Virus record (IMG/VR): IMGVR_UViG_3300008050_000024
Coordinates: 39,869 to 103,868 of that record
Length of the DNA: 64,000 bases
Direction: 5' to 3' (one strand)
From: a virus
In this document: in pieces, positions 1-11,908 of the stretch
How the letters are laid out: the number at the start of each line of letters is the position of its first letter
Numbering within the stretch: the first letter of the stretch is position 1
Notes under the pieces: generated by a model
The model's input: the letters and a program-made list of their open reading frames with translations, nothing else
Databases searched by the model: none
Told to the model about the DNA's origin: nothing
Translations under genes and position numbers: made by a program

Positions 1-705
1 TGCTATAGTGGTGGGATTGACAGTTTCACAGCATTCCACTTCTTACGAGATCGGTACGGTGTTGAGCGTCTCCGTCTTGTTTGGTTTGATCTCAAATCTC
101 GCTATAGTGAACGGGAGTGGGAATGGATTCAACGACAGGATCTGCGTTCCAATATTTCCATACAAGTAGATCGCAGTTTAGACTTGAGTGATCGGGAAGT
201 CGGAGAAAAGGCATACATACCTTTTCGCAATATGTTAATTGCTGCCCAAGCTGTCAAATACGGGGACATCGTATGTATGGCGGGAGTCTTGGACGATGTT
301 GTAGCCGATAAAAACAAGCCCATTTTTGAAGAAATGTCGCATGTGCTCAGTATGATGGAAAAACGGCCCCTTCGGGTTTGGAGTCCGTTTTGGGGATTAA
401 GGAAGCACGAAGTCGTTGCCTGGTTCCTAAACAACACGGAACATCCCAGAAACATTCTTGATACTATTTCCTGCTATTCCGGGCATTGCGACAGTAACTA
501 CTGCGGAGAGTGTCCCTGCTGTTTTCGAAAGTGGGTTGCTTTGCGGGCCAATGATGTGATCATAGATTTTATAAATATGAAATTATTGGAAGAATACTAT
601 ACACTGTGTCGTGACGGACATTACGATACAGAGAGGAATAGAAGCACTATTGAAGTTATCGATGAATATCGGCGTGAACTAAAGTTCCGAAAGGAAAGTG
701 AATAA
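1..705 (+). CDS. queC: 7-cyano-7-deazaguanine synthase QueC-like (5'-truncated by window edge)
   Basis: Frame 1 is open from base 1: CYSGGIDS (PP-loop SGGxDS), YIPFRN (QueC YVPxRN), TISCY-x-CGECPCC Zn cluster. The ORF track start at 184 is internal. Confidence 0.85.
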   Translation, partial: CYSGGIDSFTAFHFLRDRYGVERLRLVWFDLKSRYSEREWEWIQRQDLRSNISIQVDRSLDLSDREVGEKAYIPFRNMLIAAQAVKYGDIVCMAGVLDDVVADKNKPIFEEMSHVLSMMEKRPLRVWSPFWGLRKHEVVAWFLNNTEHPRNILDTISCYSGHCDSNYCGECPCCFRKWVALRANDVIIDFINMKLLEEYYTLCRDGHYDTERNRSTIEVIDEYRRELKFRKESE

Positions 706-1021
706 CATGAGAATCGCAGTTGACATTGACGGTGTCTTGACTTTGGAAACGGAAGGTCATGACTATACAAACCGAACACCGAATAAAGAAAACATCGAAA
801 AAGTAAATGAACTAGATGCGGCAGGACACACTATCATTCTGCACACAGCAAGATGGGAACAGGACCGTGGGGTTACCAAGGCGTGGTTAGATGCTCACGG
901 TCTTGTTGCTTGTGAATTGCTCATGGGCAAAGTGCTTTGTGATCTGTACATTGACGACAAAGCATCCACAACCATCCCGACGCCGCATGATCTCTATATG
1001 GCCCAGGAGGTATTCTCATGA
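698..1021 (+). CDS. Small capless HAD-superfamily phosphatase
   Basis: HAD motifs DIDGVL, ILHTAR, MGK, YIDDK; overlaps both neighbours. Confidence 0.8.
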   Translation: MNNMRIAVDIDGVLTLETEGHDYTNRTPNKENIEKVNELDAAGHTIILHTARWEQDRGVTKAWLDAHGLVACELLMGKVLCDLYIDDKASTTIPTPHDLYMAQEVFS

Positions 1022-2094
1022 TTGTATGGTTTGCCGGCACGGTAGGGAACAGAATTGAAGTTGAAAACTTTTGCAAATATCGCTTGCATTCGTATCACAG
1101 CATCCAAGATGGCGCAGCTACTCGCAATGTCATGCAAAACGAGGAACGGACGTACACTCTGTTCCTAGATAGTGGTGCTTTTTCCGCTTGGAACCTAGGC
1201 AAACCCATCCAAGTCCAAGACTATATCGATTACGTCAAAAATAACTTGTCTAAAATCGATTATTATGTGGTACTGGACGTAATTACCCAAGTCCAAGCTT
1301 CGTGGGAAAATCAGTGCGCTATGGAGGCCCAGGGACTTAAACCCCTTCCAGTCTACCATACGGAAGATCCGTTTCCATACTTGGATCGCTGTTTACACTA
1401 TGATTATTTCTGTTTAGGCGGGATGGCAAAAGGGTTTACGACAAAACAGCGTCGGGACTTTTTAGATGCCTGCTGGGAAAGAATGACAGACGCCGACGGG
1501 GCGCCTCTCACCAAGGTACACGGACTGGGAATGACATCCATCGACTTAATGATGCGTTATCCCTGGTACTCGGTTGACAGCACGTCTTGGCTATTAGCCA
1601 GTGCCATGGGAAATATCCTACTCCCCCGGTTGACCGAGTCCGGACCTGTATTTGATCAAAAGCCGTTGGTGCTGTCATCCTCCTCTCGGTCGCCTCAACA
1701 GGGTGATGACACAAAACACATACTAGCTATGAAAGGAAAAGAACGGGATCGTGTCTTTGGGTACTTGGCAGAATTGGGCGTCCCCTTGGGTGTATCGGAA
1801 TTTGTCAAGTATGAAGGACAGGAGATTTTAGAAGGACAAAAGAAATGCAAAGACGGGAAGGGACAGGAGATTTTAGAAACCATCAAGGAAGAGGGTGTAG
1901 CAAACAGTCGATACAGTCGATTTATCGTCAATGCGACATTCTTCAAACGATTAGCAGCTGGGTTGGGCAACTGGCGGGAACGTAGATTTGAACAAAAAAG
2001 AAAAGCCAAAAAAGGGTTCTTTTCAAAGAACGTATTTGTACAGCCTCCAGTAAAACGAGCGAAAGGAAAAGTGGATCATGATAAAAACAAATAG
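1018..2094 (+). CDS. TGT-fold (DpdA-like) guanine transglycosylase, probable DNA 7-deazaguanine insertase
   Basis: LFLDSGAFS, VVLDV, CLGGM, KVHGLG and YSVDSTSW correspond to TGT barrel motifs including both catalytic Asp positions; no tRNA-TGT Zn site; adjacent to queC. Confidence 0.75.
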   Translation: MIVWFAGTVGNRIEVENFCKYRLHSYHSIQDGAATRNVMQNEERTYTLFLDSGAFSAWNLGKPIQVQDYIDYVKNNLSKIDYYVVLDVITQVQASWENQCAMEAQGLKPLPVYHTEDPFPYLDRCLHYDYFCLGGMAKGFTTKQRRDFLDACWERMTDADGAPLTKVHGLGMTSIDLMMRYPWYSVDSTSWLLASAMGNILLPRLTESGPVFDQKPLVLSSSSRSPQQGDDTKHILAMKGKERDRVFGYLAELGVPLGVSEFVKYEGQEILEGQKKCKDGKGQEILETIKEEGVANSRYSRFIVNATFFKRLAAGLGNWRERRFEQKRKAKKGFFSKNVFVQPPVKRAKGKVDHDKNK

Positions 2095-3121
2095 GGAATA
2101 CCTTTTAGACCTGCTCCGGCTATTGAAGCCGGGATTGTCTGAAAAGGATTTAGTAGAGGAATTCGGCGCATTGCGCATTTGTCAAGGCACACTCGTCACC
2201 TACAACGACAAAATATCCGTCCAAGTACCTGCGCCACCCGGCTTAGAGGCACTTAACGGCATTGCAGTGAGGGTTCAGCCCCTTTATGAAATCCTATCAA
2301 AAATGGATGATACCGATATTGCATTATTGGCAGGAGAAGACAACCTTGAAATACGAGGAGCCCGAAACAAAGCCGAGCTTAAACTTCAAATCGTACAGGA
2401 AGAAATTCCCATTTGGAACGACATCGCCGCCCTAGAACAGCACGGAGGCTGGAGTGAGTTTCCCAAAGAATGCATTGACGCTATTCAAATGTGTCTATTC
2501 TGTTGTTCTAAAAACATGATGGACGGTGTGTTGACGTGCCTACACTTTACAGATTCAATGGTTGAGGGTTGTGATAACTATCGACTAGTCCGATATGCCT
2601 GGCCCGTACCGCTGCCCTCCTTTGGCGGACACATTATGATCCCGGGAGGTGCACTGTCCACATTGAGCCAGTATCCCATTTCAGAGATTGGATTGACCGA
2701 TGCCTGGATACACTTCAGAACAGAGCAGGGCGTGGTGTATTCATGTCGTACGTTTGCCGGCGAATACCCAGACACGGCTGGGTTTCTTGAGGTAACAGGA
2801 GACGCAATTAAACTCCCTTCACAGATCACAGATGTGATGGAGCGTGCCGCTGTGTTTTGCGACGACAAGTTTGAAGACGAGCAACTTGTAGATATTGAAT
2901 TACAGGGCCAGGGCAAGGTTTTGATCTCCTCCAAAGGATCCGACGGCTCATTCATGGAACAGCGGGTTCTTCGGTACGCAGGTCCGCCCAGGAAGTTCCA
3001 AGTGCATCCTGAATTTATCTCGGGAGTAATGTCAATCACGGATGACGCCATTATCGGCGAGGCTAGCCTCAAACTGGAAAAGGGCCCACTAGTTCATGTC
3101 GTACTATTGAGTGACGAGTAG
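2078..3121 (+). CDS. dnaN: DNA polymerase III beta-type sliding clamp
   Basis: 347 aa; GCDNYRL resembles ATDGHRL and GEYPD resembles G(x)FPD of DnaN; sits beside the polymerase and a DnaX-like loader. Confidence 0.75.
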   Translation: MIKTNREYLLDLLRLLKPGLSEKDLVEEFGALRICQGTLVTYNDKISVQVPAPPGLEALNGIAVRVQPLYEILSKMDDTDIALLAGEDNLEIRGARNKAELKLQIVQEEIPIWNDIAALEQHGGWSEFPKECIDAIQMCLFCCSKNMMDGVLTCLHFTDSMVEGCDNYRLVRYAWPVPLPSFGGHIMIPGGALSTLSQYPISEIGLTDAWIHFRTEQGVVYSCRTFAGEYPDTAGFLEVTGDAIKLPSQITDVMERAAVFCDDKFEDEQLVDIELQGQGKVLISSKGSDGSFMEQRVLRYAGPPRKFQVHPEFISGVMSITDDAIIGEASLKLEKGPLVHVVLLSDE

Positions 3122-3130
3122 AAAGAGCTT

Positions 3131-5857
3131 ATGAAATCTTTTTTTAGTAAGTCAGATCCCCTTTTAAAGCAAAAGGGATATTCGGGGAGTTGCCATACTT
3201 GCCGGCTGTATCTAACTTGCCAGAGCCCTAAAATGGTAGCATCTGGGATGGGTAATCGTAGAATCCTTCTAATAGGTGAAGCGCCAGGAGAAGCAGAAGA
3301 CGCCAGAGGGGAAGCAATGGTTGGGCCCTCTGGTCAGTTCCTGGAACAGACACTCCGGGCTAATGGTATTCTAATGTATGAGGACTGCTGGAAAACCTAC
3401 GCACTCCAATGCCGTCCTCCTAAAGGAAAGCAGATAACCGATGAGAGTTTATCTGCTTGTAGGACTCGAGTCATAAAAGAAATAGAAACACTCAAACCCC
3501 ATCTAATCATTTTGCTAGGAAAAACGCCTTTGTCCAACGTGCTGTTAGAAGAGTTAGATTCCGAGTTTACTGGAGCCATTGCCTCTTGGCGAGGTAGAGT
3601 GATTCCCTTTTATAAGTGGAATTGCTGGGTGGCTGTGGTATCTAATCCGGCATTCGTCCTAAAATCAGACACTAAGAAGGATTGCAATGCGCTACTTTTT
3701 AAGCAAGATATAGCAAAGAGCATCCAATACATAAATAAACCCCTTCCGGCGCCTATAGAGGAGCGTAGACACGTGCTCGGAACTCGGGAGGCTGTGGCCT
3801 TCTTGTCTAAATTGATCGTACGACCACCTGGAAACCGTGTCGCATACGATTATGAAGGAACAGGACTAAAGCCTCACGCAAAGGGACATGGCATTGTCTG
3901 TGTAGGATTAGCCGTAAATGAATCAGACGTGTACTCATTTCTTCTACCCCACATTGATCCTAAATGGACTGATGCTGAAATGCAGGAACATCTCCAACCT
4001 GAAGAGTTTCAGCTTATCTGTCTTTGGCGGCGATTCCTAGCAAGTGAACTGGTAAAGAAAACAGCACATCATTTGAAATTTGAACACAGCTGGTCTAAAG
4101 AGATCTACGGAACTGAGGTGAGGGGGTGGGAGTGGTGTTCAATGGAAGCTGCTCACATCTTGGACAATACGGAAGGAACAAACGGATTGAAATTCCTTGT
4201 GTTTGTTGAGTTTGGCATCACGGACTATAACGCCGATGTGTCGCAATACTTAAAATCCAGCAAAAAGGAAGAAAAGAGAGTAGGCAAAAACGCCATAAAC
4301 CGAATCCATCAGTGTAGCAAGCAACTGCTACTCGAATACGTAGGTGGCGATGCCTTGTACCAATGGCATCTAGGAGAACGACAAAGACAGCAGATGGAAA
4401 CGCATAAGTTTCGATATCCTCCTAATGTTCTCACAATACATGACGCATACGACTTGTTTCACGAAGGTGCTATTGTCCTGGCCGAGATTGAAGCCCACGG
4501 AGTAGCCATTGATACAAAGTATTCGACGCAGACCATGCAGGAACTCAATGGCCAGATTGAGGGGATCAAAAACGACCTAAAGGAAACCGAGGTGTACAAA
4601 GCATGGTATCAAAAATACGGATTCAATACCAATGTAGAATCCGGGGCCCAGCTAGCCGATGTGCTCTATAACATCCTGGGTCTTACTCCCACCAAAATGT
4701 CTGAAAGTGGAGAACAGGGGTCAACAGACCACGAAGCCGTAGCCGGTCTCATCGGAACCGTACAAGGAATTGAAGAAATAGCCCGCATAGGCAAATTAAG
4801 GAAAATATCAAGCACATACCTAGGCGGATACTTGAGGGAAAGCGTTGACGGTATCATACACCCCTTCTTTCATTTGCACATTCCCAGGACATTCCGATCC
4901 TGTAGCCGTAACCCTAACTTTCAAAACGTCCCGAAACGGGACTATGAGAGTATGTCAATCACACGTCGATCCATTATACCCCGCCCTGGACACGTTCTTG
5001 TCGAGATTGACTTCTCAAATATCGAAGTTCGCATCAGCGCCTGCTATCACAATGACAAGCAGATGATCATCTACATCAAAGATCCCACTACGGACATGCA
5101 CAGAGACCAAGCCATTGAAGTATTCAAAATGCAGCCTTCTTGGTGGCACGGATTAACTAAGCCCCAAGAGAAGAAAATGAAGCCTATCCGACATACAGCA
5201 AAGAACAAATTTGTATTCCCTCAATTTTACGGAGACTACTTTGTTAGTTGCGCCCAGGCTATGTGGCAGGAAGCCGCTGAACATACGCTTTTCAATGATG
5301 TTCCACTACTTGAACACATGAGATCTCAAGGCATTGGTACCTTAGAATCCTTCACTCAGCACATGAAAGAGGTCGAACACAGGTTTTGGCATGAACGCTT
5401 CCCAGAGTACACAGCTTGGAAGGAACAGTGGTATAAGGATTACATTGCCCGGGGTTGGTTTATAATGAAAACCGGGTTCAAATCAGAAGGGCTGTTTACC
5501 AGAAATGAAGTAATCAATCACCCTGTACAAGGACCAGCATTTCATTGCCTTTTATGGAGTGTCATTCAAATGCACAAGGAATTAAAAGCCCAAAACAGCC
5601 AGTCACGTATTTGTGCACAGATTCACGATTCCATGTTTTTAGATGCAGACCCGGATGATTTAGACTTTATTTTCGAGAAATCTACAGAGATAATGACACA
5701 GCGGTTGGTAGACGAATGGAAGTGGATCACAGTCCCATTGGCGATAGAACACGATGTCAGCAGGGTAGACGGGACTTGGCAAGAACAGACGACATTACCG
5801 TGGGATAAGTTAAAGAACAGACAAGAGGATATCCGTACGTTTTTAGCGAGTATATAG
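3131..5857 (+). CDS. polA: Family A DNA polymerase with N-terminal family-4 uracil-DNA-glycosylase-like domain and 3'-5' exonuclease
   Basis: UDG: CxxC, GEAPG, VGPSG, CRPP. Exo: YDYE, YVGGD. Pol: RSCSRNPNFQNVP, motif A DFSNIEVR, motif B RHTAKNKFVFPQFYG, NHPVQG, motif C QIHDS. Confidence 0.93.
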   Translation: MKSFFSKSDPLLKQKGYSGSCHTCRLYLTCQSPKMVASGMGNRRILLIGEAPGEAEDARGEAMVGPSGQFLEQTLRANGILMYEDCWKTYALQCRPPKGKQITDESLSACRTRVIKEIETLKPHLIILLGKTPLSNVLLEELDSEFTGAIASWRGRVIPFYKWNCWVAVVSNPAFVLKSDTKKDCNALLFKQDIAKSIQYINKPLPAPIEERRHVLGTREAVAFLSKLIVRPPGNRVAYDYEGTGLKPHAKGHGIVCVGLAVNESDVYSFLLPHIDPKWTDAEMQEHLQPEEFQLICLWRRFLASELVKKTAHHLKFEHSWSKEIYGTEVRGWEWCSMEAAHILDNTEGTNGLKFLVFVEFGITDYNADVSQYLKSSKKEEKRVGKNAINRIHQCSKQLLLEYVGGDALYQWHLGERQRQQMETHKFRYPPNVLTIHDAYDLFHEGAIVLAEIEAHGVAIDTKYSTQTMQELNGQIEGIKNDLKETEVYKAWYQKYGFNTNVESGAQLADVLYNILGLTPTKMSESGEQGSTDHEAVAGLIGTVQGIEEIARIGKLRKISSTYLGGYLRESVDGIIHPFFHLHIPRTFRSCSRNPNFQNVPKRDYESMSITRRSIIPRPGHVLVEIDFSNIEVRISACYHNDKQMIIYIKDPTTDMHRDQAIEVFKMQPSWWHGLTKPQEKKMKPIRHTAKNKFVFPQFYGDYFVSCAQAMWQEAAEHTLFNDVPLLEHMRSQGIGTLESFTQHMKEVEHRFWHERFPEYTAWKEQWYKDYIARGWFIMKTGFKSEGLFTRNEVINHPVQGPAFHCLLWSVIQMHKELKAQNSQSRICAQIHDSMFLDADPDDLDFIFEKSTEIMTQRLVDEWKWITVPLAIEHDVSRVDGTWQEQTTLPWDKLKNRQEDIRTFLASI

Positions 5858-5878
5858 ATTTAGTTGTTTATATAAGTC

Positions 5879-5908
5879 TTTACTTCGTATATAAAAGTAT
5901 GTTATACT
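5879..5908 (+). promoter_or_regulatory. Sigma70-like promoter with extended -10
   Basis: TTTACT-N18-TATACT with TG at the extended position (TGtTATACT) in an AT-rich gap; SD AAGGAGG upstream of 5948. Confidence 0.55.
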
Positions 5909-5947
5909 CTATTATTCGTATGAGAGTTTTTAAGGAGGTTTGTATAG

Positions 5948-6304
5948 ATGGAGCGAACAATGCCTATCTCAGGAACTAACTCCTGTTCCGATAACGCACC
6001 ACCAAAGATGACCCGGACATCGTTTCCTGGTCATACGGTTACAAAGGGCTACTATCGAATGTTCGTGGATAATCGTACCATGAAGAATATAGTAGGCGGC
6101 ATGAGGACTGTGTTCATTCACAGAAAAAGAAAATGGGTCAGGATTTACGACCCGTTCACTTCTTCAGGATCTGCCCAACTATCTAAAGGCATGTTTGACA
6201 CGATGACGGTAGAGCTCCTGACGCCAAAGCAACAGGCGTATGCGCAAAAGAAAGACAGGAGATTACGTGGGTTTATACCAGAAGCATCGTCCCTCGACCT
6301 TTGA
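5948..6304 (+). CDS. Hypothetical protein
   Basis: Strong SD AAGGAGG; follows promoter. Confidence 0.55.
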   Translation: MERTMPISGTNSCSDNAPPKMTRTSFPGHTVTKGYYRMFVDNRTMKNIVGGMRTVFIHRKRKWVRIYDPFTSSGSAQLSKGMFDTMTVELLTPKQQAYAQKKDRRLRGFIPEASSLDL

Positions 6305-7196
6305 CGGGGTCATAGGGAACAAGGAAGTAGTAGCGTCGCTTAAGACAATCTTAGCTAGGCCTAAAGAGCACATTCCAAAGGCCTTTCTTTTATCAGGACC
6401 TAGTGGCTGTGGCAAAACTACGATTGCCCGCATTATACGGGACGTGCTAGGCTGTGCCATTTTTGATTTTAAGGAAGTTGATACCGCAGACATGCGAGGT
6501 ATTGACATGGTGCGGGAACTCAACCGTATCGCTCATTACAAGACCACAGGAGGTTCCTGCCGGGTTATCCTTTTGGACGAATGCCACAAGATGACCAACG
6601 ATGCCCAGAACGCCTTACTCAAGTTGCTGGAAGATCCTCCACCCAATGTCTTTTTCATACTGGCCACAACAGATCCCCAGAAACTAATCAAAACAATCAT
6701 TACTCGTTGCACGTCCTTTGAACTGAAACCCCTACCCCAAAATGAGTTATGCTTACTACTGATGAAAGTAGCCCGTGCCGAGGGCAAACTCATAAAGCCG
6801 ACGTCACTCCAAAAGATAACCGAAGGAGCCAACGGCAGTCCTCGAGGCGCTCTCCAGATTCTAGAAAAAGTAATAGACTACCCCATTGATCAACTAGAAG
6901 AATTGATTACCAATATGGAGAGTTTTGATGCACGTGGTATCGATTTAGCACGTGCCTTAATAAAACGGGCGCACTGGAGTGAGATCCTCAAGATTTTAGC
7001 CGGTCTAACCGAGCCAGAAGAGTCCATTAGACGCTGTATCTTAGGATATAGCACGACTGTATTATCAAACCCCAAGACGTCAACAGCAGATCAAGCTCGG
7101 GCATACGTATTGTTGACCTGTTTCGAACGCCCGTACTACGATACAGGAAGAGCGGGGCTTATCATGTCCTGCTATGAAGCAAAGGCAACCAAATGA
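6240..7196 (+). CDS. dnaX: Clamp loader ATPase, DNA polymerase III gamma/tau-like
   Basis: YQKHRPSTF, Walker A GPSGCGKTT, Walker B LLDECH, QNALLKLLEDPP, TRC arginine finger. Start may be slightly downstream. Confidence 0.9.
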   Translation: MRKRKTGDYVGLYQKHRPSTFDGVIGNKEVVASLKTILARPKEHIPKAFLLSGPSGCGKTTIARIIRDVLGCAIFDFKEVDTADMRGIDMVRELNRIAHYKTTGGSCRVILLDECHKMTNDAQNALLKLLEDPPPNVFFILATTDPQKLIKTIITRCTSFELKPLPQNELCLLLMKVARAEGKLIKPTSLQKITEGANGSPRGALQILEKVIDYPIDQLEELITNMESFDARGIDLARALIKRAHWSEILKILAGLTEPEESIRRCILGYSTTVLSNPKTSTADQARAYVLLTCFERPYYDTGRAGLIMSCYEAKATK

Positions 7197-7747
7197 CAAC
7201 AGTTATAATTGAATCAGAAGAAGATTTCAAACATCGCATACGGCTTAATATGGGTGAGCTTGAGGAATTGTTTTTTGAGCATCCCGCAATCGTAGCCGAA
7301 TATGGCGAACTTGCTGCGAAAGCTGAGCGTGCCTACAATCTCGCTCACGAAACAGCACGGGAAACCCTTTTTGGTATTATGAACGATGCTAGAAAGAGTC
7401 CCACAGACTATGGGATCGTGTCGGCCCGTTCAGCTCCTCCCGAAGGCGCTATAGAGAGCACGGCACGGTCCGAACAAAGTGTAATTGACGCCCGCAGGGC
7501 AGAAGTAGAGGCACAGTCCATTTGGAATATAACCAAAGGACGAATGCAAGCTCTACACCACAGGAAAAAAATCATAGAGTCACTTGTAAACCTAACGCAC
7601 ATGGGGTTTTTTGCTGCTCCTAAAGATGCGCCTGGGGCACGATTGACTCCAACTAAGGAAAAGTCACAAGCTATCAATGAATCAGTGGACGCCGCAATCC
7701 GGCGATCACGCAATTTACCACATCCATTGGAGGGAACACATGAATAG
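7193..7747 (+). CDS. Recombination mediator, UvsY-like (putative)
   Basis: Helical ~180 aa protein upstream of SSB and RecA-like genes; inferred mostly from context. Confidence 0.5.
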   Translation: MTTVIIESEEDFKHRIRLNMGELEELFFEHPAIVAEYGELAAKAERAYNLAHETARETLFGIMNDARKSPTDYGIVSARSAPPEGAIESTARSEQSVIDARRAEVEAQSIWNITKGRMQALHHRKKIIESLVNLTHMGFFAAPKDAPGARLTPTKEKSQAINESVDAAIRRSRNLPHPLEGTHE

Positions 7748-9353
7748 ATCGGAACGAGCACAGGCACAGAGGGACAGGATCAAACAAGATGCTGTTGCCT
7801 CTCAATCAAAAGGAGCGGATTACTTAGGAAATTCCAAGTTTCCTATAAAGACGCTCAACCTCAAAACAGGCACCCATTTTTTGGATTTCATGCCCTATGA
7901 TGTTACTATGGAGGGATCTCCTCACAAGGTAATACCGGGCGACATTTGGTACAGGAGGAGTATCCTACTTCACCGAAACATCGGTTCAGAAAACATCAAA
8001 CTGGTTTGTCCCAAAACCTTTGGGAAAGATAAACCCTGCCCCATTTGTGCCCATCGTAACTATCTACAAGGGCTCGGAGATCCTTCCATGGACGCTCTTA
8101 TCAGCTCGATTAAGCACCATGAACGTACTTTGTTTAATGTGGTGGATCTTAATAATTCGTCCGTGGGTACTCAAATACTGGATGCCGGGGATTTCCTGTT
8201 TACTAACTTAATGATGAAGGAAGTTAATGAGAATGATGATTTCCTCTACTTCACTGAGTTGGAGGGTGGGTATCAAGTCAAAATCCGAATGGATGAGAGT
8301 AGTTTCCAGGGACGCAGTTTTCCAAAGGCTGGTCGATTCGATTTCATACCCAGGGATTACACGTACCCAGAAGCCGCTATGCAGGCTGTTCATGATTTGG
8401 ATGCCATCATCATCGTGCAACCCTATGAAGAAATCAAAGAGTTGTTTTTTGAAGGAGAAGAGCCTCCTGTTGCTGGGGCAACCACTGTTTCTGTTCCTGG
8501 TGCCGTAGCCGGCGCAGCTCCCGCTGCTAATTCTGTTGCGAGTTTTATGCCAGCCGGTGCTGTTCCTTCAGGGACTGCTCCAGGTGCTGCCGCTGTTAGT
8601 CCTCCAGCTTTAGCCACAACGCAACCCGCCGCTCCTCCCGCATCAGTACCAGCGGCGCAACAAGCCGCACCGGGACCAGTAGCTCAACAAGCAGTACCGG
8701 CGCCAGCAGCTCAACAGGCCGCCGCTCCTGCGCCGGCTACTCCTGGAGTAATAACAAGAGACCCCATGCCAGAACAAAAGGCGAATGAGGCTCCCACGCA
8801 AACAGCTCCTCTAGCCACGGCACCTCAACGCACAAACCCTCCCGGGACTGTAGCTGCTCAAGCCCCTCCCGCTGCTCCTCCTGCTGGGATACAGAGAAGT
8901 GCCCCTGCCGGAGCGGCAATCACTCAACCTACCGAAATACCAACTCCCCCAAAAAAGGCGCCTCCTGGTCCTACCGGATATGAGCCTTGTATTGCCTGCC
9001 AAGAAACAGGCGTACCCTCAAATGGAATTGGTGACTGTTTCCCTTGCAAAGGATTTGGTTGGTTGACTGTGCAGGCCCCCCCTGCACAGCAACCACCCGC
9101 CCAGCCTCCTGCGGTTTCCCCTCAAGCTGTTGCACCCCCAGCAGCGACTCCCCCGCAGGAGGCTCCAGTAAATCAAGTTCCCGCCCCAGCAGCACAAGTG
9201 CCCGTGCAACAACAGGCCGCTACTCCGGGAGGAACGTGTCCAGATCCCGCTGGTACCTTTGGTGTTTCTACAAACGACATTCCCGCCTGTACAGCCTGCC
9301 CCTTATGGGAAGCTTGTGCGGATCGTAAGTTCGGAGACACCGTCCCATTCTAG
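7740..9353 (+). CDS. gp32-like single-stranded DNA-binding protein with long Pro/Ala/Gln linker and C-terminal Cys modules
   Basis: N-domain H...CPKTFGKDKPCPIC Zn motif and FNVVD; low-complexity linker; start 7740 preferred (SD GGAGG, overlaps upstream gene). Confidence 0.7.
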   Translation: MNRSERAQAQRDRIKQDAVASQSKGADYLGNSKFPIKTLNLKTGTHFLDFMPYDVTMEGSPHKVIPGDIWYRRSILLHRNIGSENIKLVCPKTFGKDKPCPICAHRNYLQGLGDPSMDALISSIKHHERTLFNVVDLNNSSVGTQILDAGDFLFTNLMMKEVNENDDFLYFTELEGGYQVKIRMDESSFQGRSFPKAGRFDFIPRDYTYPEAAMQAVHDLDAIIIVQPYEEIKELFFEGEEPPVAGATTVSVPGAVAGAAPAANSVASFMPAGAVPSGTAPGAAAVSPPALATTQPAAPPASVPAAQQAAPGPVAQQAVPAPAAQQAAAPAPATPGVITRDPMPEQKANEAPTQTAPLATAPQRTNPPGTVAAQAPPAAPPAGIQRSAPAGAAITQPTEIPTPPKKAPPGPTGYEPCIACQETGVPSNGIGDCFPCKGFGWLTVQAPPAQQPPAQPPAVSPQAVAPPAATPPQEAPVNQVPAPAAQVPVQQQAATPGGTCPDPAGTFGVSTNDIPACTACPLWEACADRKFGDTVPF

Positions 9354-9388
9354 ATTGCAAAGGGATTGGAACGGAAAGGAAAATAGTT

Positions 9389-9802
9389 GTGAATGAGTTA
9401 GATGAAAACCTATTAGAAGACCCGCCAACAAAGAAGAGTTCCAAGTATTTTGCTGCTTGGACTAAGCCGGAGATTGTGGATCGTTTGGATTTAGCATGGG
9501 CAAGTACAGGCGCTCGTAGCCGGGCCCATTGCTTGAAAGCACTGGTTAATGATTTTATTAACCAAGCCAGTAATTCTGAGGATCGATGCATTACACGGAT
9601 GGCGGAGGAAATGGCGAACGTCTGGCTAACTCGCACGTTTCAATCCCTCCCCGGTTTTTTAGACGAAGTGCGTCTAAAGTACACAAAGATGAAACTACCA
9701 ACAAAGTACATTGAACAGGTATGTGAAAAGATAAAGGTTATAATCAATGAAAAGAACGAACACGCCCGACGAGCAAACTTCGGAACCCCCGAAAATAAGT
9801 AG
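9389..9802 (+). CDS. Putative ribbon-helix-helix DNA-binding protein
   Basis: EIVDRLD...SRAHCLKALV pattern resembles CopG/RHH. Confidence 0.4.
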   Translation: MNELDENLLEDPPTKKSSKYFAAWTKPEIVDRLDLAWASTGARSRAHCLKALVNDFINQASNSEDRCITRMAEEMANVWLTRTFQSLPGFLDEVRLKYTKMKLPTKYIEQVCEKIKVIINEKNEHARRANFGTPENK

Positions 9803-11009
9803 AACGCCGATAGCAGCAGGACCGCCTGTTGCTGCTGTTCCAGCCCTTGTTCAGGATGTTGCGCCGGTTATGCAAAGAATCCCCGGGACTGTACCAGCCG
9901 CTGCTCCCGTCCAAAGAGAAGCCCCTGGCGCATCGATGTGCGGAGCAGTTCTTCCTGACAACTATATCGTATTTCCTACAGGATCATCACTTCTTAATAC
10001 ATACATGGCCCGTGATACGGGTTTGGGAGGATTTGCCTCTGGAACGATTTCGAACGTGGTAGGAGATTCTGGTGGAGGCAAAACATTGCTGGCATTATCG
10101 TGTTTTGCCGAAATGGCTAAAAACCCGAAATTCAATGATTATCGATTTATCTTCGATGACGCTGAGCACGCCCTTGCCTTCGATTTAGAAACCATGTTTG
10201 GAGCAGAAGTAGCTCGGCGCATAGAACCTCCTAGAGAACCCAGAGATGCCAATGATAACGGCAGTTCGGCTACTGTTGAAGAATGGATGGATAACATGCA
10301 TGCTGCAGGGGCGGACGGTCGTCCTTTCTTTTACGTGTTAGATTCTTTAGATGCATTGCCGAGCGAAGACGAGCTTGATCAGATTGAAGACGAAAGAAAA
10401 GCAAGGCAAGGCGGTAAAGAAACTTCTGGGTCATACGGTACGGCTAAGGCTAAGCGAGTAGGACAGGCCATACGTACGAGCTTAAAGCTAACAGACAACA
10501 CAAGTTCCCATATAATGATTCTCTCGCAGACTAGGGATAAAATTGGAGGATACGGGGGTAAGGGACGCAGTGGCGGGAAGGGTTTACAGTTCTTCTCCTC
10601 CCATGTCCTCTGGGTGTCCATTAAAGCGTCAATAAAACGCACTGTCAATAAAATGGAATTTGAGGTAGGGCGCACGATTGAAGTGCTTTTAGACAAGAAC
10701 AAAACAGGGGGCATTCGCCGTAAATTCCTAGTCAATATTTTAGACCACTACGGAATTGACGATTTGCTTAGTATGTTGCAATACCTGGAAGCATGTGGTT
10801 GCATAGGACACGAAATAGACCCAAAGACTAAAAAGCCAAAGAAAAGCAGTCTACACTTTGAGGAACTGGGTTTAACCGGTGTTCCCGATACCATCATAAA
10901 AAGAATAGAAGAAAATGGATGGGAGTCTCGGGTTCAATCGATTCTAGTTCGTTGGGTAGCCAAAGTTGAAAAAAGTGTGTTAAAAGGAAGGAAGCCCCGG
11001 TACGCATGA
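9747..11009 (+). CDS. recA: RecA/UvsX-like recombinase
   Basis: PTGSSLLN, Walker A GDSGGGKT, DAEHA, Walker B VLDSLDAL, SQTR, GGKGLQFFSS, KNK. Confidence 0.9.
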   Translation: MKRTNTPDEQTSEPPKISRTPIAAGPPVAAVPALVQDVAPVMQRIPGTVPAAAPVQREAPGASMCGAVLPDNYIVFPTGSSLLNTYMARDTGLGGFASGTISNVVGDSGGGKTLLALSCFAEMAKNPKFNDYRFIFDDAEHALAFDLETMFGAEVARRIEPPREPRDANDNGSSATVEEWMDNMHAAGADGRPFFYVLDSLDALPSEDELDQIEDERKARQGGKETSGSYGTAKAKRVGQAIRTSLKLTDNTSSHIMILSQTRDKIGGYGGKGRSGGKGLQFFSSHVLWVSIKASIKRTVNKMEFEVGRTIEVLLDKNKTGGIRRKFLVNILDHYGIDDLLSMLQYLEACGCIGHEIDPKTKKPKKSSLHFEELGLTGVPDTIIKRIEENGWESRVQSILVRWVAKVEKSVLKGRKPRYA

Positions 11010-11908
11010 TTTTGTTCGTTGATTGTAGTAATCTCTGCCACGCCGCCGCACACACGACGGGTGATCTAGAATTGGAAGGAAAAAAAGTAGGGGTCATATT
11101 CGGATTCTTACAGAAGTTCCTATCCATTCTAAGGGAACGCCCGCAACCACCCTCCGCAATCGTGTTTACTTGGGATACTAGACGTCATGAGAATTACAGG
11201 AGGCGCATATATCCCAAGTATAAGGCCCAGAGACAGGCAGAACCGGGCAAAGAGATTGATTATGATCAATTTACCCAGTTGCGTACTGAAGTTCTTCCCA
11301 ATATGGGATTTGCTAATCAGTGGCACCAAAAAGGATATGAAGCCGATGACTTAATGGCTCAGGGCGTCCTATGCTATCCACAGGAACATCATACCATAAT
11401 TTCTACTGATACAGACTTGTACCAACTACTTCGACCGAGCGTAGATATCATCAAACCAAAAACCCGTTTGAAGTTTACGTTGAAAGATTTTGAAGAACTG
11501 TTCGGAACAACGGATATGTCCCTGTTTATACAGGCAAAAAGCCTTGCCGGAGACAATTCAGACAACATCACAGGAATTGACGGTATCGGCGTACCCACCG
11601 CTATGAAATTTCTAACAGGGAAACTATTCAAAGGCAAAAAATACGATGCTTTGGTGGATCCACAATACACACATCAAACATCCTTAAATTCACGTTTAAT
11701 CTGTTTGCCCTACAAACAAGCAGAAGATCCAATCAAGATTCCGCACATCCAAGGAGATCCCATAGATTGGCCCACTATTTCTGCAGTATTAAAATCATTC
11801 AAATTTGAACGAATACTGATGCAAAACAGAGGGCATTACGCTGGAAAAACCGTAGATGAAAAAATGAGAAGAGTAGGAATAGCAAGGAAAGGATTTTTTA
11901 ATGACTAG
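11006..11908 (+). CDS. 5'-3' exonuclease / flap endonuclease (T4 RNase H / PolI N-domain type)
   Basis: FVDCSN, YPKYKAQR, EADD, STDTDLYQL, GDNSDNITGIDGIG (H3TH). Confidence 0.92.
   Translation: MILFVDCSNLCHAAAHTTGDLELEGKKVGVIFGFLQKFLSILRERPQPPSAIVFTWDTRRHENYRRRIYPKYKAQRQAEPGKEIDYDQFTQLRTEVLPNMGFANQWHQKGYEADDLMAQGVLCYPQEHHTIISTDTDLYQLLRPSVDIIKPKTRLKFTLKDFEELFGTTDMSLFIQAKSLAGDNSDNITGIDGIGVPTAMKFLTGKLFKGKKYDALVDPQYTHQTSLNSRLICLPYKQAEDPIKIPHIQGDPIDWPTISAVLKSFKFERILMQNRGHYAGKTVDEKMRRVGIARKGFFND

Follow-up and report, generated by a model that had tools for sequence, protein, structure and literature searches.

The replication and modification operon

The 64,000-nucleotide stretch analysed here (the window) makes up the right-hand end of IMG/VR virus record IMGVR_UViG_3300008050_000024, the 103.9-kb genome of an uncultured phage. 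The first 12 kb of the window form a single plus-strand operon that encodes, among others, a DpdA-like DNA guanine transglycosylase, a DnaN-type beta sliding clamp, a family A DNA polymerase and a flap nuclease (FEN). DpdA, the polymerase and FEN each carry near one end a short K-[GS]-F-F peptide, which is probably a ligand of the clamp. The genes and motifs on which this proposal turns are as follows; some start codons of the open reading frames (ORFs) are our own assignment.

1018..2094, plus strand: DpdA-like DNA guanine transglycosylase, 358 residues (phrog_887, E value 6.7e-54)
2008..2028, plus strand: motif KKGFFSK in the DpdA tail, residues 331-337, 23 residues before the stop (ORF translation)
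2078..3121, plus strand: phage DnaN-type beta sliding clamp, 347 residues (phrog_947, E value 1e-20; PDB profile match)
3131..5857, plus strand: family A DNA polymerase with an N-terminal family-4 uracil-DNA glycosylase (UDG)-like domain, 908 residues (PF00476, E value 9.8e-41; PF03167, E value 1.5e-17)
3131..3151, plus strand: motif MKSFFSK at the polymerase N-terminus, residues 1-7, the local form of a clade-wide M-x(0-5)-G-F-F
6240..7196, plus strand: clamp loader ATPase, 318 residues (PF13177, E value 1.5e-25; phrog_5846, E value 1e-60)
11006..11908, plus strand: 5'-3' flap nuclease (FEN), 300 residues (PF02739, E value 3.5e-22; AlphaFold2 predicted local distance difference test score, pLDDT, 88.9)
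11885..11905, plus strand: motif RKGFFND at the FEN C-terminus, residues 294-300 (ORF translation; low-confidence tail, residues 279-300)

DpdA is 36-40% identical over residues 16-257 to annotated phage DpdA or 'queuine tRNA-ribosyltransferase' proteins; the similarity search returned 200 phage records with annotated homologues, and the AlphaFold2 model has a pLDDT of 75.6. The gene is the last of a 7-deazaguanine cluster in the order folE/queD/queE/queC/HAD/dpdA. The assignment combines a core resembling tRNA-guanine transglycosylase and homologous to phage DpdA with these preQ0-pathway neighbours, and the predicted activity is the insertion of a 7-deazaguanine base into DNA. The dpdA stop codon falls inside the clamp ORF, an overlap of 17 nt (2078-2094). 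Most neighbours in the operon also overlap or abut, so that translation of the modification genes may be coupled to that of the replication genes.

Three terminal motifs

The ORF translations place KKGFFSK, MKSFFSK and RKGFFND exactly where a preliminary description of this DNA had read them. Within 30 residues of a protein end, K[GS]FF occurs three times in the 143-protein proteome of the 103.9-kb genome, against 0.10-0.11 expected, and only 2 of 5,000 per-protein shuffles reach three terminal matches. The genome has one more K[GS]FF, internal to a protein of unknown function. Because the motif was defined after the fact, its conservation, described below, is a stronger argument than this chance figure.

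The segments had also been described as terminal and probably disordered, and this agrees with the AlphaFold2 models, which were built on alignments: pLDDT is below 50 for DpdA residues 334-358 and FEN residues 279-300. The GFF of DpdA comes right after a basic helix (residues 319-332), at the point where the floppy tail begins, and the polymerase motif occupies residues 2-5, well ahead of the UDG domain, which begins near residue 42. All three motifs therefore lie in segments of the flexible kind in which beta-clamp-binding motifs occur. A fourth, weaker member had been proposed in the UvsY-like protein, whose ORF has HMGFFAAP at residues 135-142 (about nt 7595-7618), 45 residues from the end. 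We excluded it, since it lies within the protein and its counterpart in the homologues is a conserved YFAGP..PRD block; it is a distinct motif, and the set is reduced to the three tails.

The clamp and its peptide cleft

The preliminary description had taken the 2078-3121 product to be a clamp. That it is one, and a genuine beta clamp of the DnaN type, is upheld by phrog_947, by PDB profile matches and by hhalign. A profile of 13 clade clamps matches about 50 PDB DnaN chains (best 2awa, E value 1.5e-19, profile positions 3-313), so that homology to the DNA polymerase III beta subunit extends across all three domains. The hhalign comparison with the 'beta subunit' of phage CAjan gives 99.2%, and PF02768 is on record for one clamp homologue (P0003).

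Columns 165-170 of the clade clamps read [ST]D..R[ILV] and columns 228-232 read G[ED][YF]PD; these segments align with ATDSHRL and GNYPD of the Streptococcus pneumoniae clamp, which belong to the canonical subsite-1 region of the cleft. They presumably correspond to T172-L177 and P242-V247 of Escherichia coli beta, the hydrophobic subsite 1, a mapping that rests on the S. pneumoniae alignment. Subsite 1 of the bacterial clamp accepts the Leu-Phe of its ligands (PMC3716654).

Conservation in related loci

Scans of viral contigs with the clamp alone or the polymerase alone gave no close relative, and a tblastn search of GenBank phages with the clamp gave nothing at 1e-5. Profiles of three and then thirteen clamps brought up 31 loci in viral and 51 in metagenomic sequences; 64 are distinct, and the counts take in some closely related contigs (loci are cited by their L numbers). 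The clamps of these relatives are 23-35% identical to that of the window, and despite this low identity the order DpdA-clamp-polymerase-clamp loader-UvsY-SSB-UvsX-(FEN) is kept, where SSB is the single-stranded DNA-binding protein.

The polymerase N-terminus is M-x(0-5)-G-F-F or a near variant in 39 of 40 related loci (for example MKGFFEKE, MGFFTK, MKQSGFFDLEE, MSGFFTKKE, MKPFFDK, MIQRFFTK, MKGFYPS and MALFSKS). The GFF lies 0-5 residues from the Met and is followed by a non-conserved linker, and the motif is present both in fused polymerases and in those split over two genes. Terminal motifs are likewise found in 19 of 24 DpdA homologues, 10-20 residues past the conserved P-x-W-P-W-P-F that closes the fold; their ends follow [KR]GF[GLS]L or resemble it and include RGFLL, KKFFL, RGFGL, KGFGLC, KGFSL, RGLSI, KKFEL, VKGLF, SLFR and KVFI, and the KKGFF of the window aligns with these C-ends (alignment A3). 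The polymerase and DpdA motifs are thus kept across clamp lineages of 24-33% identity.

In an unbiased scan, regular expressions were run over all complete ORF ends of the related loci (674 N-terminal and 663 C-terminal). Polymerases account for 33 of the 39 N-end matches, and 18 of the 29 C-end matches are DpdA (16) or FEN (2). An exhaustive search provided a sample not selected via the clamp: among the 149 nearest DpdA cluster representatives, 80 end in a hydrophobic-F or GFGL-type motif, a roughly ten-fold enrichment over the background of 35 in 640 other ORFs (5.5%). At these frequencies the polymerases, the DpdAs of the clade and the DpdA representatives have the LF-type hydrophobic/aromatic pair of beta-clamp-binding motifs. 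Conservation in homologues had been named beforehand as a check on the proposed code, and these counts bear it out.

For FEN the evidence is supportive but weaker, because the segment may belong to the last helix. Most of 54 FEN homologues end in W-K-x-x-[IVF]-F-x(1-8), by reading of the listing, and three FENs of the clade have the ending LKGW.. with further residues.

Further proteins of the related loci have similar ends. An N6/N4 DNA methylase (PF01555) encoded between clamp and polymerase ends in EGFGLI (L026:3613-4461), two CxxCxxCC proteins (PF03692) in the same slot end in TGLGL (L024:5147-5833) and LGFGL (L030:906-1601), and a DUF6884 protein upstream of dpdA ends in KKGFGLL (L052:1082-1522). 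By their sequences, all are candidate further clamp clients.

The architecture of the polymerase and the loader varies among the relatives. In L004, L005, L008-L010, L021-L027, L030 and others, the polymerase is split into a UDG/exonuclease-like protein (about 400 residues) and a polymerase (about 460 residues), and the two genes are sometimes separated by ORFs. The polymerases of L007 and L011 (1225-1257 residues) and the clamp loaders of L007, L014 and L016 (653-697 residues) are much longer, and the excess length suggests inteins or inserted domains. In L078 the clamp is followed by a DnaE-type (PHP-domain) polymerase of 1091 residues (L078:1188-4463) with a C-terminal UDG-like domain and an internal EGFFDL just upstream of it.

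Cultured phages

The closest annotated relatives of DpdA come from Queuovirinae and other siphophages. We examined 18 cultured phages, 12 with a clamp gene near dpdA and six without. In the 12, the gene after dpdA, or after at most two intervening small ORFs, encodes a beta clamp; it is annotated in 11 of the records, and in Sulfitobacter phage M39 a clamp-like N-terminus was read in the next, unannotated ORF. All 12 DpdAs have clamp-binding-like ends:

NP1 ..IQELF; R7M ..IQELF; RHEph04 ..EQRLF; Sulfitobacter M39 ..QTQGFF
CAjan ..VMELF; JenK1 ..LQDLFDE; Vibrio BA3 ..MIQGLF; Streptococcus MS1 ..KQNRLF
Bacillus Flasso ..SQGKLF; Synechococcus Yong-L2-223 ..PDPVLF; Sphingomonas MMDA13 ..VADLFS; Vibrio 033B ..DQPGLF

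Among the six phages without a nearby clamp, the DpdAs of Bipper, phiSM, Mufasa8 and Megan have no such end, and those of SfI (L096, ..PQLAFEV) and Acinetobacter phage AB3P2 (L097, ..DQQCLF) do. The difference, 12 of 12 against 2 of 6, has a Fisher p of 0.005. A comparison of clamp-encoding with clamp-lacking phages had been suggested in the preliminary description, and in this version, based on gene adjacency, it comes out in favour of the proposal.

The two DpdAs with motif-like ends but no adjacent clamp may use the host beta clamp, to judge from their sequences. They raise the wider alternative that the tails in the window also target the host clamp, instead of or besides that of the phage, as diversion or landing pads; the motif does belong to the class bound by bacterial clamps. 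Set against this, genes for a phage clamp and loader stand next to those of the clients, the GFF and GFGL forms of the clade lack the Gln typical of host ligands, and the predicted complex with the phage clamp (below) passes. We regard a host target as quite unlikely.

The polymerases encoded 3' of the clamps in cultured phages also begin with related sequences: AIGFFWQD in CAjan PolB, AIGFFWED in JenK1 PolB and SIGFFWDD in MMDA13, NVGLFWQD in Yong PolA and AIGMFWED in 033B PolA. As PolB and PolA enzymes alike start with G[FLM]F(W), the motif tracks the clamp family and not the polymerase family or the UDG domain. This bears on the simplest objection, that the matches are coincidental or that the residues belong to folded parts, with GFF as a piece of the UDG-like domain and the FEN end as a piece of the last helix. 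The motif is indeed just three or four residues long and was defined after the fact, and many FEN homologues have an aromatic pair near a conserved W that is possibly in the last helix. However, three terminal matches stand against 0.1 expected; the GFF varies in its distance from the Met, precedes a non-conserved linker and also opens PolB, which has no UDG domain; the DpdA and FEN tails have low pLDDT; and the DpdA C-ends exceed the background about ten-fold. The conservation data largely refute this objection, which we consider very improbable.

Predicted complex of the DpdA tail with the clamp

The preliminary description had proposed predicting complexes of each peptide with the clamp. 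Docking covered the DpdA tail only, as the 43 residues 316-358 with the clamp, and it gave a complex score of 0.63 (runs 0.66, 0.57 and 0.63) against 0.00 for the best of three controls. Of 80 solved complexes 58 attain that mark, as do 2 of 110 mismatched pairs. At least 62% of the contacts agree between docking runs, and the partner pLDDT is at least 50. The confident contacts of the predicted interface join DpdA residues 331-335 (KKGFF) and 339-342 to clamp residues 148-152, 165-170, 227-236, 343 and 345. From the 43-residue tail the model selected exactly the conserved GFF, and it places F334 and F335 in those parts of the clamp, the [ST]D..R[ILV] and G[ED][YF]PD segments, that match the canonical peptide cleft in the alignment. 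For DpdA, then, the model supports binding to the clamp without demonstrating it.

Other proteins of the operon and genome

The remaining genes of the operon, all identified by domain and PHROG profile matches, are:

1-705, plus strand: QueC-like protein
698-1021, plus strand: HAD-type protein
7193-7747, plus strand: UvsY-like protein
7677-9353, plus strand: gp32-like SSB
9747-11009, plus strand: UvsX-like recombinase

In the same genome, 5' of the operon, are genes for two SNF2 helicases, a DnaQ-like exonuclease, a primase, a second UDG and a DnaB-like helicase, together with QueD, QueE-like radical SAM enzymes and FolE. With these replication and deazaguanine genes the phage owns a replisome and a complete preQ0-type pathway, and its clamp loader gene indicates that it runs its own clamp system.

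Two proteins encoded before the window may be further motif carriers, judging by their ends. An orphan ORF in the deazaguanine cluster (G000:C1 37506-38222 = L002:15506-16222) starts MNLENKKIQTFFKKG, with KKIQTFFKKG in its N-terminal part, and the DnaQ-like exonuclease (G000:C1 29879-30817 = L002:7879-8817) ends in DAFKSSFY. Homologues of these two were not found in the related loci, and a Protein Atlas search with the orphan ORF gave no match.

The gp32-like SSB and its homologues (L004-L010, L017) have a Pro/Ala/Gln-rich low-complexity linker of about 290 residues and a conserved Cys-rich C-terminal module, C-P-x-G-x-x-F-G ... C-x-x-C-x-x-W-x-x-C, of zinc-ribbon-like appearance. The UvsX-like recombinases (L007, L010, L011, L022-L024, L028, L031-L034) share a basic-aromatic C-tail, such as PKRKRKY, PRRKRRYE, DRPRKF or GRKRRFE, with KGRKPRYA in the window. 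On this pattern the tail is a candidate second terminal peptide code, with UvsY, SSB or DNA as candidate partners.

The existence of a conserved UvsX tail, [KR]RKR[KR][YF], means that several peptide codes coexist in the clade, and Lys/Arg-rich stretches precede the K-[GS]-F-F motif itself. Both facts would suit an alternative in which the three tails bind another shared replication partner (the clamp loader, the gp32-like SSB or UvsX/UvsY) or act as basic DNA-binding tails. A pure DNA-binding tail would need no invariant aromatic pair at its extreme end, though, and the presence of the motif tracks an adjacent clamp gene. Moreover, the motifs resemble beta-clamp ligands, with QxLF in the cultured relatives and a GFGL-COOH similar to the LGL of Pol IV, and the docking model puts GFF in cleft-aligned segments of the clamp while the controls score 0.00. 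Another partner is, on this evidence, unlikely.

Interpretation and proposed mechanism

We consider it likely that the K-[GS]-F-F peptides serve to bind the DnaN-type clamp that the phage itself encodes. The sequence comparisons support the view that the three tails behave as one conserved short linear motif, and in sequence this terminal motif is a variant, lacking the Gln, of the motif by which bacterial proteins bind the beta clamp. One feature of the original proposal has to be given up: the code is not 'private', being a variant of the bacterial motif common to many phages of the clamp family, including cultured Queuovirinae. Nor is it like the PCNA-interacting peptide (PIP) box, Qxx[LIVM]xx[FY][FY], which the preliminary description had cited for comparison: no tail has Gln at -6 or a hydrophobic residue at -3, and the clamp is of the DnaN and not the PCNA type, so that this reading was rejected.

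Several observations weigh against clamp binding. The Gln conserved in the bacterial consensus is absent, a basic residue standing in its place (K/R-K-G/S before FF); in the window no Gln lies three to four residues before the pair, as it does in many DpdA tails of cultured phages (IQELF, LQDLF, IQGLF). The DpdA motif of the window is internal, 23 residues from the end, and that of the relatives is very C-terminal. Five of the 24 DpdAs of the clade (L006, L011, L012, L014 and the second paralogue in L036) have no terminal motif; L012 and L006 have SYDLFA and EEFFW, respectively, at the aligned internal position. K-G-aromatic occurs in four of eight FEN C-ends of the clade, the window and seven relatives. 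Co-variation of the polymerase and DpdA motifs was looked for and is not claimed, as it is anecdotal, with one suggestive case (L015, ALF with SLF). The complex score expresses model confidence only, and since solved complexes of beta clamps with peptides are abundant, the docking pass may partly reflect likeness to them. Finally, a comparable idea for phage T4, the binding of alpha-glucosyltransferase to the gp45 clamp, was not reproduced in a 2025 preprint (10.64898/2025.12.06.692756).

If the peptides do bind, the following mechanism may be proposed. The clamp loader (6240-7196) would load the phage clamp (2078-3121) onto DNA. The polymerase would grip it by its extreme N-terminus, in the manner of E. 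coli Hda, FEN by its C-terminus, and DpdA by its basic helix and the GFF where the floppy tail starts. In each case the Phe pair would insert into the hydrophobic cleft that lies between domains II and III of the clamp, so that the three proteins would share one docking cleft; in the relatives, the DNA methylase and the two kinds of uncharacterised protein would use the same cleft. DpdA would in this way be concentrated on freshly replicated duplex still bearing clamps, where, soon after DNA synthesis, it would replace G with the 7-deazaguanine base that the products of the upstream folE/queD/queE/queC genes supply, and modification could outrun host restriction. That the proteins physically bind the clamp and compete for it, that DpdA acts on clamp-bearing duplex and that modification is coupled to replication are all steps that we infer. 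DNA modification is probably tied to replication in this phage.

A wider generalisation, that phage DNA modification is generally organised by tethering enzymes to a phage-encoded beta clamp via a terminal hydrophobic-F peptide, we advance tentatively, doubting it slightly more than we believe it. If it is true, DpdA is a clamp rider not just in this clade but also in Queuovirinae and many lineages known from metagenomes, and so are the clamp-adjacent N6/N4 methylases and the CxxCxxCC (PF03692) and DUF6884 proteins. The insertion of 7-deazaguanine would then be replication-coupled and not merely post-replicative, and the strength of the tail would help to set how completely a genome is modified.

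Comparison with known systems

Hda of E. coli is a known case of a protein whose clamp-binding motif, QLSLPL, stands right at its N-terminus; Hda differs in being a DnaA regulator, not a polymerase, and in its sequence. The bacterial beta-clamp motif itself has the consensus QL[SD]LF, with QLGLF in Pol II, QLNLF in Pol V and a C-terminal LVLGL-COOH in Pol IV (PMC3716654). The phage motif is likewise short and placed in a flexible terminus or linker, several clients of one clamp share it, and the subsite-1 cleft of a DnaN-type clamp is predicted to accept its hydrophobic/aromatic pair. The GFGL-COOH of the clade recalls the LGL end of Pol IV, and the DpdAs of cultured relatives end in QxLF. It is unlike the bacterial motif in that the K-[GS]-F-F of the window has no Gln, that the polymerase copy is at the extreme N-terminus, and that one client is a base-exchange enzyme, a kind not found among described clamp partners.

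Modification by the published phage transglycosylases DpdA1-4, with which the DpdA of the window shares a homologous catalytic core and a preQ0-pathway cluster, is regarded as post-replicative (PMC6884629, PMC10516641). These papers describe neither a C-terminal tail of DpdA nor adjacency to a clamp gene, and PMC10516641 never mentions a clamp. The level of modification spans <0.1% to 100% of guanines, and the reason was left open (PMC10516641). In full-text literature searches on DpdA or deazaguanine in connection with sliding clamps, processivity or the replication fork, the papers returned were all unrelated, and none connects DpdA with a clamp. To the known systems our analysis adds a deep-branching lineage (with a UDG-PolA, a DnaN-type clamp and a loader), an N-terminal hook on the polymerase, and further tail-bearing clients.

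The importance of the proposal lies in the role of the modification, as 7-deazaguanine in DNA protects phages from restriction. In the published view DpdA is a free-standing post-replicative enzyme; a clamp hook would be a concrete mechanism by which it reaches new DNA ahead of host nucleases, and a base-exchange enzyme would join the client list of the clamp. The same arrangement is found in cultured coliphages (CAjan, 9g-like) and in Pseudomonas phage NP1, and the N-terminal GFF hook on PolA and PolB may also help in the annotation of phage replisomes.

A contested notion, that the replisome carries phage hypermodification enzymes along, would also be revived, now with sequence evidence. In the T4 alpha-glucosyltransferase-gp45 hypothesis, as in the present proposal, a phage DNA-hypermodifying enzyme rides the phage clamp, and in T4 and RB69 the C-terminal gp45 ligands of gp43, gp33 and gp55 show a polymerase and accessory proteins sharing a terminal peptide. 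The gp45 clamp differs in being a PCNA-like trimer, not a DnaN dimer, and the evidence in the present case is a conserved motif, not a pull-down.

A eukaryotic parallel is offered by DNMT1, in which a PIP box that binds PCNA couples maintenance methylation to replication. There too a DNA-modifying enzyme is tethered to a sliding clamp and new DNA is marked during synthesis, and the N6/N4 DNA methylase of the relative L026 bears the same tail as the clade DpdAs. DNMT1 differs in using a PCNA-type clamp, a Qxx[LIVM]xx[FY][FY] motif and methyl transfer, whereas the predicted reaction of the phage enzyme is base exchange.

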